Part shown: positions 1,218 through 2,187 of the stretch, in pieces | Numbering within the stretch: position 1 is the stretch's first letter | Layout of the letters: each line of letters starts with the position of its first letter | Source: a virus | Taxonomy: Duplodnaviria > Heunggongvirae > Uroviricota > Caudoviricetes | Length of the DNA: 21,025 nt | Direction: 5' to 3' (one strand) | IMG/VR virus record: IMGVR_UViG_2534681835_000014 | Span: 1 to 21,025 of that record | Translations under genes and position numbers: made by a program | Notes under the pieces: model-generated | The model's input: only the letters and a program-made list of their open reading frames with translations | What the model was told of the DNA's origin: nothing | Databases searched by the model: none

Positions 1218-1874
1218 GTGATGAACCATGAAGAAATGAATCAGCGCTTCAGTCGTCTGGAAAATGAAATTGCTGAACTGAATAAAAAACTGTCGGCGCT
1301 GATGCCTTCTGAAGATGCAAAAAAACGCCGCGATGAGCAGTTTGCGGCGTTTTACGATGATTGCATCAAAATTGCTCGCAGGACCTTTGCGAATATTTTG
1401 CAGGAAAAGTTTTTACCGACCGCATTGTCAGAAAAGTACTCCATTACGGTTAAAAGTGCCGGAGAGGAAGGCAATAAACGTTATTTTATTGCGTCTGCAC
1501 CGGATAAAGACCAGGAATGGGAGTGTAATCGGCCATCTTTTATTGTGACCAGCGATGACTGGAATATCACGATCAGTGAAGATGGAAAAGTAACACCAGC
1601 ATCGCACCAGCACAGTGAGGCGCTCATTGAATTTGCCATTGATTACCTGAAGAACAATAAAAAGCAGGGGCTGATGAAGCGCATTGGTCGCTGCATGGGA
1701 TATCTGCAGCTGGCGGCAGAGGTTGAAGCACTTGCCTGTGGTGCTGACAAGGATGCAGTTGTGCGGGAGGCTCTTCTTCGTGAGTTTGACAACCCGCCCT
1801 TTAAAAAAGTGCCGGCTTACTGGTTTCATCCCGGACTGACTTATCTGAAAGGGCGGTTTGGGGCGGTTATCTGA
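1218..1874 (+). CDS. hypothetical protein (218 aa) inserted between holin and endolysin; N-terminal coiled-coil-like segment
   Basis: Clean ORF starting GTG/ATG 1218/1221 right after the holin stop. AT-rich relative to the flanking lysis genes. No recognisable motif. Confidence 0.55.
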   Translation: MMNHEEMNQRFSRLENEIAELNKKLSALMPSEDAKKRRDEQFAAFYDDCIKIARRTFANILQEKFLPTALSEKYSITVKSAGEEGNKRYFIASAPDKDQEWECNRPSFIVTSDDWNITISEDGKVTPASHQHSEALIEFAIDYLKNNKKQGLMKRIGRCMGYLQLAAEVEALACGADKDAVVREALLREFDNPPFKKVPAYWFHPGLTYLKGRFGAVI

Positions 1875-2187
1875 ACTTAAGCGATAGTTTATTGAAGAGC
1901 CGTTTTTTTTGCAGACAGGCAAAGTTTTTATCCCATGAACAACCCGGGTGACTGAGTTCGTCATTAAACCATTTGTTAATGTTGTGCTTCAGATGCTGAA
2001 GCATCAATGGTGTTAATGTGGTGATAATGATATCCAGTGTTTCTGTTGAAAGCATGCCGTAAGGCTCTGCGAGAATGGCTTGAGTGGCCTCGCTGTTATC
2101 CGGGATAAGCGCTTTTAATTCTGATTTAACATTTTCGTTCATTACCCGCAAAAACTCTCTGCGTAAATTGTTGTCATTATTATTCAT
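1867..2187 (-). CDS. hypothetical protein (106 aa), convergent with 1218-1874
   Basis: Minus-strand ORF in the same AT-rich block. Its 3' end overlaps the 3' end of the plus ORF by 8 bp. Weak RBS; the start could be further downstream. Confidence 0.4.
   Translation of the reverse strand: MNNNDNNLRREFLRVMNENVKSELKALIPDNSEATQAILAEPYGMLSTETLDIIITTLTPLMLQHLKHNINKWFNDELSHPGCSWDKNFACLQKKRLFNKLSLKFR

Follow-up and report, generated by a model that had tools for sequence, protein, structure and literature searches.

What separates the pinholin gene S from the endolysin gene R in a prophage whose lysis cassette might be expected to carry the two genes side by side? The question is raised by a stretch of viral DNA of 21,025 nucleotides (IMG/VR record IMGVR_UViG_2534681835_000014), here called the window, in which two convergent open reading frames (ORFs), ORF-A and ORF-B, lie between S and the gene of a signal-arrest-release (SAR) endolysin. 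A prophage of E. coli O111:H8 strain 8E (NZ_CP077465.1) matches the window with 100% identity; there, RefSeq calls both reading frames as genes and labels their products hypothetical proteins. An earlier note, made from the sequence of the window, had taken the pair for a single two-gene insert and a moron, with superinfection exclusion, toxin/immunity or defence as candidate functions. The analysis reported here leads to a different picture. Probably, S21-type cassettes of E. coli lambdoid prophages have a two-tier accessory slot at their S-R junction, and in the window it is filled by two independent modules. This confidence covers the architecture and its evolutionary reading, not the function of ORF-B.

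ORF-A and ORF-B are separate modules and not one two-gene insert, because each gene commonly occurs without the other. ORF-A-like DNA is present in 1,131 of 5,426 complete E. coli genomes and DNA of the ORF-B module in 674 of them (27 at ≥95% identity and 648 at ~69%), which corresponds to ~12% of the genomes and includes most of the sampled O157:H7 strains of enterohaemorrhagic E. coli (EHEC). The combination of both genes as in the window is found in only 27 of the 5,426 genomes. All contexts of the ~69% class that were opened (5/5; Sakai L089, L095, L096, L097) have the order S, reverse gene and R without ORF-A. In prophage Sp4 of O157:H7 Sakai these are the holin gene ECs_1100, the reverse gene ECs_1097 and the endolysin gene ECs_1096, and the same arrangement is seen in an O111:H8 strain. 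ORF-B homologues are accompanied by no gene of the ydfR family, to which ORF-A is assigned below, in Sakai Sp4, in L097 and in L083-85, where the homologue (cluster P0128) lies between holin and lysozyme. Conversely, an ORF-A-type gene stands alone in 10 of 70 related loci. In such A-only cassettes (L018, L038) ORF-B and its spacer are absent and the stop codon of ORF-A is followed by R within ~45 bp. The ORF-B module is also absent from compact S-R cassettes, which lack both reading frames.

A census of the junction shows how the gap between S and R is filled. It comprises 80 IMG/VR loci with a holin at least 97% identical to that of the window, the best 80 of at least 596 holin matches; 70 of them also contain R. 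The earlier note had assumed that holin and endolysin genes are usually adjacent, and had proposed a search of relatives for adjacency without the insert. Such compact cassettes do exist, with S and R 1–4 bp apart, but they account for 10/70 loci only, and most gaps are filled, mainly by the ydfR family. S-R adjacency is thus the minority form in this phage group. A ydfR gene consisting of DUF1327 only is found in 19/70 loci, and a DUF1327 ydfR gene together with a reverse gene in another 15/70. The ORF-A-type gene without a companion (10/70) fills a gap of ~600 bp exactly. A long fused form is present in 8/70 loci, the long fused form plus an ORF-B relative in 3/70, the ORF-A type plus an ORF-B relative in one (L022), and other combinations in four. 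Altogether, a ydfR-family gene resides in the S-R gap of 59/70 loci, either as DUF1327 only, as DUF1327 plus C-terminal module or as C-terminal module only.

The second tier is formed by reverse-oriented genes directly upstream of R (22/70 loci). They belong to five unrelated families: the ORF-B family and families of 95/116 (phrog_10490), 79–91, 90 and 233 amino acids. Searches of the four alternative families against Pfam, NCBIfam and PADLOC yielded only a weak partial match of the 95/116-residue family to PDC-S51 (E ~1e-5), and no paper on an S-R hotspot turned up in the literature searched. Variants of the junction that are split, truncated or frameshifted occur in L041, L065, L013, L095 and L096, and a remnant is seen in L086.

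By homology, ORF-A can be assigned to the YdfR family as a member without DUF1327, equivalent to the C-terminal two-thirds of YdfR family proteins. It matches phrog_1085 with E=1e-102, and only positions 117–296 of the 296 profile positions are covered. Its homologues form more than 150 protein clusters and include many 'YdfR family' proteins of 268–333 residues with an N-terminal DUF1327 (PF07041). The non-DUF1327 part of these proteins aligns with E-values of 1e-61 to 1e-80 and covers 68–97% of ORF-A, and the DUF1327 columns of the family alignment are empty for the window protein. Pfam gives no match at E≤0.1, so that DUF1327 is not detected in ORF-A, and neither Pfam nor PHROG gives a lysis-family annotation. 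Matches to NCBIfam and PADLOC-DB v2 (best E 0.074) do not rise above noise.

The modules of the family are, in order, DUF1327, a short β-linker, a coiled coil, and a variable middle with a conserved C-terminal module. The C-terminal module comprises ~90 residues (~125–213 of ORF-A) and is marked by the motifs HxH, GRCMGYLQ.AAE.E, NPPFKK and W..PGLTYLK. The window allele starts at the coiled coil (residues ~1–63), its ATG lying 3 nt past the stop codon of S. Helices are predicted at residues 3–27 and 31–63, consistent with the coiled-coil-like N-terminus described in the earlier note. The product appears to be soluble and without transmembrane segment, with a 19-residue Kyte-Doolittle maximum of 0.90, below the transmembrane threshold. 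The AlphaFold model, calculated from a 26-sequence alignment, is poor, with a predicted local distance difference test score (pLDDT) of 49, and sequence and profile searches of the PDB with three alignments gave nothing significant.

Short alleles without DUF1327 are abundant (clusters P0001, P0004 and P0043 with n=228, 253 and 338, respectively). These large clusters, together with an own start codon and Shine-Dalgarno sequence, argue that the short alleles are not mere truncation debris. An exhaustive hidden Markov model (HMM) search with the ORF-A profile returned just 43 representative clusters. The distant matches among them (P0135–P0153) have the same architecture and no Pfam domain; three long repeat proteins that also matched the profile were rejected as spurious. 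A contig scan of genomes with the ORF-A family alignment found members in Escherichia/Shigella only, confirmation being by the first sequence alone. Viral scans with distant relatives added one locus, L093, in which a DUF1327-like gene lies just upstream of a different holin.

ORF-B matches phrog_1853 with E=3.6e-44. Its homologues fall into 51 protein clusters, all from E. coli, with identities down to ~36% and none with a Pfam domain, and the gene is intact across relatives that are 46–100% identical. The AlphaFold model is confident although derived from five sequences (pLDDT 84.3, predicted template modelling score 0.75) and consists of five helices. The product is accordingly predicted to be a soluble five-helix bundle, with a calculated isoelectric point of 8.6. 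Its 19-residue Kyte-Doolittle maximum of 1.23 is below the transmembrane threshold; the S21 holin (1.70) and the SAR region of R (1.78) served as controls. The fold search gave no informative match for ORF-B, and searches of Pfam and NCBIfam gave nothing above noise. The best PADLOC-DB v2 match has an E-value of 0.031, which is noise, and the Sakai homologue ECs_1097 has no match there. The HMM and structure searches suggested in the earlier note have thus placed neither protein in a known Pfam, NCBIfam or PADLOC family and ORF-B in no informative fold, and the idea of defence cargo finds no PADLOC model to lean on.

Pairwise dN/dS ratios (nonsynonymous to synonymous substitution rates, Nei-Gojobori) are in the range of 0.22–0.65 for ORF-A and 0.18–0.33 for ORF-B, the latter calculated with relatives whose synonymous sites are nearly saturated. 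Ratios below 1 and the confident model of ORF-B show that both are real genes under purifying selection.

That the interval has a lower GC content than both flanks is borne out (S 54.6%, ORF-A 46.8%, ORF-B 39.3%, R 53.9%). The AT-richness is real and concentrated in ORF-B, in the spacer between ORF-B and R (2188–2312, 37.6% GC) and in the 5' half of ORF-A (43.2%, compared with 52.6% in the 3' half). Taken together, ORF-B and spacer (1867–2312) have 38.8% GC versus ~54% in S and R. ORF-B bears hallmarks of a moron, namely a low GC content, a reading direction against that of the late operon, a patchy occurrence and an insertion point that is fixed, and the label fits this gene only. It does not fit ORF-A, which belongs to a family present in 59/70 loci, points in the same direction as the late operon and begins 3 nt behind the S stop codon.

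The joints of the ORF-B module were located by a junction comparison that took in the window, L086, L009, L022 and L002. On the left, ORF-A closes with a short GTTATCTG motif, and it is here that the module is joined. Proteins of the ORF-A family usually end in ...GRI*; the window protein ends in ...GRFGAVI*, and this ending creates the 8-bp overlap of the two genes. The same joint is present in L086 beside a scrambled ORF-A remnant of 65 residues, with ORF-B intact. In the more distant L009/L022 clade a 9-nt gap takes the place of the overlap. The ending made by the joint and the gap in this clade show the overlap to be a by-product of a recombination joint and no conserved regulatory design. 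The overlap itself (1867–1874) and the lack of a terminator between the genes, both pointed out in the earlier note, are confirmed; the antisense interplay deduced from them is not upheld. Terminator-like sites are absent from 1393–2209 in the terminator scan, folding of the RNA at the overlap and in the spacer is no better than that of shuffled sequence, and an Rfam search of the S-R interval gave no match.

On the right, ~45 bp directly upstream of R (2269–2312; ...AACATATCCAGG...GATAAATCCTGATAAATATCC-ATG) are common to all non-compact cassettes. In most of these a hairpin is located just left of the conserved flank; the clade of the window has a different small hairpin in the spacer (2209–2227). 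In L009 and L022 only, the shared hairpin, CGCCAGTG-n5-CACTGGCG, has a T-run behind it on the minus strand. It lies there a short way upstream of the ORF-B-like genes and makes an element resembling a terminator, placed between R and the reverse gene.

The 3' end of the holin gene reads GGGGAGAG-TAG and, as the junction comparison indicates, provides a Shine-Dalgarno sequence for whatever gene comes next. The GGGGAGAG-stop context precedes ORF-A, the long ydfR genes and, in compact cassettes, R. This shared context suggests that ORF-A took over the translational coupling to S. R itself uses GGGGAGAG at the 3' end of S in compact cassettes. In every cassette whose gap is filled (the window and L002–L086), the conserved GATAAATCCTGATAAATATCC-ATG stands before R and a Shine-Dalgarno sequence is not evident. 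The differing upstream contexts of R imply that filling of the slot may alter its translation.

In the proposed two-tier slot, the first module would be ORF-A (1221–1874). As a short allele, lacking DUF1327, of the YdfR family of mosaic late genes, it would occupy the place that R has in compact cassettes and use the Shine-Dalgarno sequence that S carries at its 3' end. This position and Shine-Dalgarno sequence suggest that ORF-A is produced late, by co-transcription from pR', and that its translation is coupled to that of the pinholin. Its product would be a soluble, probably oligomeric coiled-coil protein that is dispensable for lysis. The second module would be ORF-B with its spacer, an AT-rich reverse moron recombined between the GTTATCTG joint and the ~45-bp flank. 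The same insertion point is taken by at least four other unrelated small reverse genes in other prophages. Since ORF-B faces the late operon, its expression would need an own promoter, presumably located in the spacer. Inspection of the minus strand of the spacer by eye reveals two perfect TATAAT hexamers (2258–2263 and 2235–2240). Additionally, a TATGTY hexamer (2269–2274) is part of the block common to all cassette types, even those without a reverse gene. These hexamers are candidates for the promoter of ORF-B.

Most likely, ORF-B would be expressed in the lysogen and silenced once induction sets off Q-antiterminated late transcription, which meets it head-on. With no terminator behind ORF-B, its transcript would continue into ORF-A and S as antisense RNA. 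The product, a soluble helical bundle of small size without catalytic motif, would most likely act by binding a host or phage protein. This binding and the role considered most likely, that of a lysogen fitness or phage-exclusion factor, are a guess, and a tentative one. An even bolder proposal is that the slot upstream of the SAR endolysin is an unrecognised hotspot of lysogen-expressed single-gene factors for phage exclusion or lysis control, antisense to the operon and switched off at induction, with ORF-B/ECs_1097 as a new soluble helical-bundle member; this appears unlikely.

Other explanations of the interval were weighed against the two-tier slot. ORF-A and ORF-B could be one acquired two-gene system for toxin/immunity, superinfection exclusion or defence, antisense-coupled via the overlapping 3' ends. 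The genes are adjacent and convergent with the 8-bp overlap and no terminator between them, the interval is AT-richer than its flanks, and the closest relatives retain the joint (27 genomes, as well as L086 with its degenerate ORF-A remnant). However, each gene is commonly found without the other, the ORF-A family is resident at the site in 59/70 relatives, the L009/L022 clade has the 9-nt gap, L086 combines an intact ORF-B with a scrambled ORF-A, and no PADLOC, Pfam or NCBIfam match supports such a system. By this distribution a coupled pair is largely refuted already, and it is considered very improbable. Least probable of all is that the interval is debris, with ORF-A the 5'-truncated remnant of a long ydfR gene, ORF-B a decaying ORFan and neither of them functional. 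The region is indeed highly mosaic, with many split, truncated and frameshifted variants, and the host prophage is defective with an interrupted terminase gene. But the short form of ORF-A has its own start and Shine-Dalgarno sequence after S and forms clusters of hundreds, dN/dS is below 1 for both genes, and ORF-B is intact even in distant relatives.

Two further explanations concern expression of the cassette. In one, ORF-A is an accessory of lysis or late expression that acts on RNase E and RNA like YdfR of K-12, affecting stability or processing of the late transcript, or tunes lysis timing; this would explain the near-constant placement of the ydfR family between S and R. The earlier note had considered that the 218-residue protein might prove to be a lysis accessory conserved in all relatives. 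The family is indeed found in 59/70 junctions, with DUF1327-like relatives just upstream of the holin in L093, and ORF-A is co-oriented with S and starts immediately after it. On the other hand, 10/70 relatives lyse with no gene of this kind, a lysis role is unproven, and in phage 21 itself R directly follows S. The C-terminal module has no known function. Residues 1–72 of K-12 YdfR bind the catalytic N-terminal half of RNase E, and RNA co-purifies with the protein; overexpression of ydfR has little effect on the transcriptome (PMC13232886). This RNase E interactome study is the only functional paper on YdfR that the literature search returned, and DUF1327 is mentioned incidentally in one place. 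The RNase E-binding region is the DUF1327 domain, exactly the part that ORF-A lacks, and binding of RNase E or RNA is therefore not expected to carry over. A function of this kind is considered improbable for ORF-A. In the other explanation the reverse slot is a cis regulator whose leftward promoter would silence leaky holin and endolysin expression in lysogens by antisense RNA or transcriptional interference, the reading frames being secondary. The five unrelated genes are alike only in position and reverse orientation, each of them has the conserved block with the TATGTY hexamer upstream, a block retained even in cassettes without a reverse gene, and transcripts would run unterminated from ORF-B into ORF-A and S. 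This explanation is at odds with the purifying selection on the ORF-B protein (dN/dS ~0.2 with saturated synonymous sites) and its confident fold. Furthermore, a recombination flank or the 5' leader of R would explain the conserved block just as well, and the consensus promoter scan found no promoter. A cis regulator is regarded as quite unlikely.

Several specific identities were also tried and rejected. A type II toxin-antitoxin pair, like the toxin/immunity pair of the earlier note, is unlikely for genes that are convergent, not co-transcribed and independently distributed. Membrane proteins for superinfection exclusion (SieA, SieB, Imm or HK97 gp15 type) were discarded in view of the Kyte-Doolittle maxima of both proteins (0.90/1.23) and the lack of a transmembrane segment, and a known anti-phage defence system in view of PADLOC-DB v2 matches at noise level. 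A core lysis protein was dismissed since there is no lysis-family homology and compact cassettes manage without both genes. A conserved antisense overlap was dropped because it is absent in the L009/L022 clade.

The two-tier slot is thus the favoured explanation, and a number of points weigh against it. A consensus scan finds no sigma-70 promoter in or near the spacer, and none of the -10-like hexamers in the spacer has a convincing -35 element. The TATAAT at 2258–2263 is kept only in Sakai and that at 2235–2240 only in L086; both are degenerate in other ORF-B relatives. That ORF-B would be expressed in the lysogen and ORF-A late is read from their orientation only. ORF-B and the other genes of the slot match no family, fold or defence model, which makes any function a guess. 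ORF-B homologues are frameshifted or truncated in L095 and L096, which marks the gene as dispensable and perhaps, here and there, in decay. The model of ORF-A (pLDDT 49) supports no structural claim beyond the helices. Finally, the census, with its best-matching holins, is not an unbiased survey. All in all, the finding is real and mostly ordinary mosaicism of the lambdoid late region; what stands out is a small hotspot inside the lysis cassette, whose reverse genes are uncharacterised and which is common in Shiga-toxigenic E. coli.

The features of the locus are compiled in the table. Their coordinates and Pfam matches confirm that a 218-residue ORF and a convergent 106-residue ORF lie between pinholin and SAR endolysin. 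The holin has the dual-start motif MYQM. The N-terminus of R is hydrophobic, rich in Ala/Gly and SAR-like, with its Kyte-Doolittle maximum at residues 9–27.

Table. Genes and other features in the left-hand part of the window that surround and fill the S-R junction.
Feature	Position	Strand	Remarks
DUF1378 gene	460–639		left-hand part of locus
DUF826 gene	677–925		left-hand part of locus
S21-type class II holin (pinholin) S, 71 aa	1002–1217	+	Pfam PF04971, E=1.9e-32; RefSeq 'class II holin family protein'
ORF-A	1221–1874 (ATG, 217 aa, RefSeq start) or 1218–1874 (GTG, 218 aa)	+	
ORF-B, 106 aa	1867–2187	-	
Overlap of ORF-A and ORF-B 3' ends, 8 bp	1867–1874		
Spacer, ORF-B start to R start, 125 bp	2188–2312		
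SAR-type endolysin R, 177 aa	2313–2846	+	Pfam PF00959 (Phage_lysozyme), E=5.6e-23
Rz spanin	2861–3310	+	Pfam PF03245, E=1.6e-48; RefSeq 'lysis protein'; ends lysis cassette
Rz1	3063–3248		embedded in Rz

Accessory genes are also found elsewhere in and around these cassettes. A DNA methyltransferase gene lies between R and Rz of a related prophage (L002, 4702–5598), and thus marks a second accessory slot in the same lysis cassette. In L083 (4913–6054), and also in L084 and L085, a 263-residue ADP-ribosyltransferase similar to Enterotoxin_a/Scabin and a 110-residue ORF are encoded directly upstream of the S21 holin, the position of the ADP-ribosyltransferase being that of stx in Stx phages. In Sakai Sp4 the regulator gene pchA follows Rz.

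Further along the window, the terminase gene terL is split by an element of ~10.2 kb (N-terminal part 4450–5460, element ~5461–15691, C-terminal part 15692–16822). The element carries genes for a tyrosine integrase (5619–6857), an AlpA-like helix-turn-helix protein, BRO-N, Icd-like and DUF4222 proteins, a primase and a single-stranded DNA-binding protein, and it encodes its own fusion of a ClpP-like prohead protease and major capsid protein (12898–14787). It looks like a capsid-forming phage-inducible chromosomal island or P4-like satellite integrated in terL of a potential helper. On the minus strand of the window, positions 324–400 weakly match the EHEC small RNA Esr41 (RF02676; 30.9 bits compared with a gathering threshold of 102, E=0.004), next to a minus-strand terminator-like hairpin at 344–332. 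This match is probably a diverged relative or due to chance.

The two-tier organisation bears on how S21-type cassettes are read. Within this phage group, the textbook lysis cassette with S next to R is shown to be in the minority. The YdfR family, for which a link to RNase E has recently been found, has a modular build; the module at the C-terminus also occurs by itself, as a free-standing late protein. A large share of the prophages of Shiga-toxigenic E. coli carry the set of reverse genes, one of which is present in the reference EHEC strain Sakai. If the slot holds lysogen-expressed exclusion or fitness factors, at least five small uncharacterised genes, a compact set that is easy to clone, would be available for screening.

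Filled S-R gaps are known from sequenced phages. Stx2-converting phage 86 (orf5/orf6; NC_008464), PhiR12 phages and vB_EcoS phages carry a 'YdfR family protein' and a further hypothetical ORF between s and r. These phages are inducible, so that the arrangement is compatible with a working lysis cassette. Their alleles differ from those of the window, with 85–88% DNA identity over part of the interval only, and none of the phage records has the exact combination of the window at ≥95% identity.

The closest named counterpart of ORF-A is YdfR of the K-12 Qin prophage (P76160; DUF1327/PF07041), which has the same slot and the same late-operon orientation. In Qin, ydfR lies between the S21-type holin gene essQ and the lysozyme gene rrrQ. 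K-12 YdfR, with its 103 residues, consists of DUF1327 only and has no C-terminal module; ORF-A has the complementary domains and no DUF1327. Long members of the family (287–333 residues) are 58–65% identical along the whole length of ORF-A. ORF-A has only three parts in common with the family, namely the coiled coil, the middle region and the conserved module at the C-terminus; no function is known for any of them.

For ORF-B, the counterpart is ECs_1097 of Sakai Sp4, with ~65% identity of the amino acid sequences and ~69% DNA identity over gene and spacer. Like ORF-B, ECs_1097 is reverse-oriented, directly upstream of the endolysin gene ECs_1096 and downstream of the holin gene ECs_1100. It differs in that no ydfR-family gene adjoins it and ~255 bp of non-coding or remnant DNA are found instead. 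Its RefSeq annotation starts at an internal Met (90 residues), and the literature search returned nothing on ECs1097.

Well-known lambdoid morons are bor and lom of lambda, HK97 gp15, stx upstream of S and pchA downstream of Rz. Like these, ORF-B is an extra gene of deviant composition in the late region, placed between two genes that lie side by side in relatives; its expression is presumably independent of the late operon. Unlike these, it lies inside the lysis cassette in a slot that is always reverse-oriented, and no recognisable pair of promoter and terminator was found for it. Its product is soluble without signal peptide or transmembrane segment, in contrast to Bor, Lom and gp15. Accessory and defence hotspots of P2 and P4 prophages and satellites have reportedly been described by Rousset et al. 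in 2022. The S-R slot differs from the P2/P4 hotspots in that no cargo gene matches a known defence protein, and resembles them in its fixed position, its conserved flanks and the exchange of unrelated small cargo genes.

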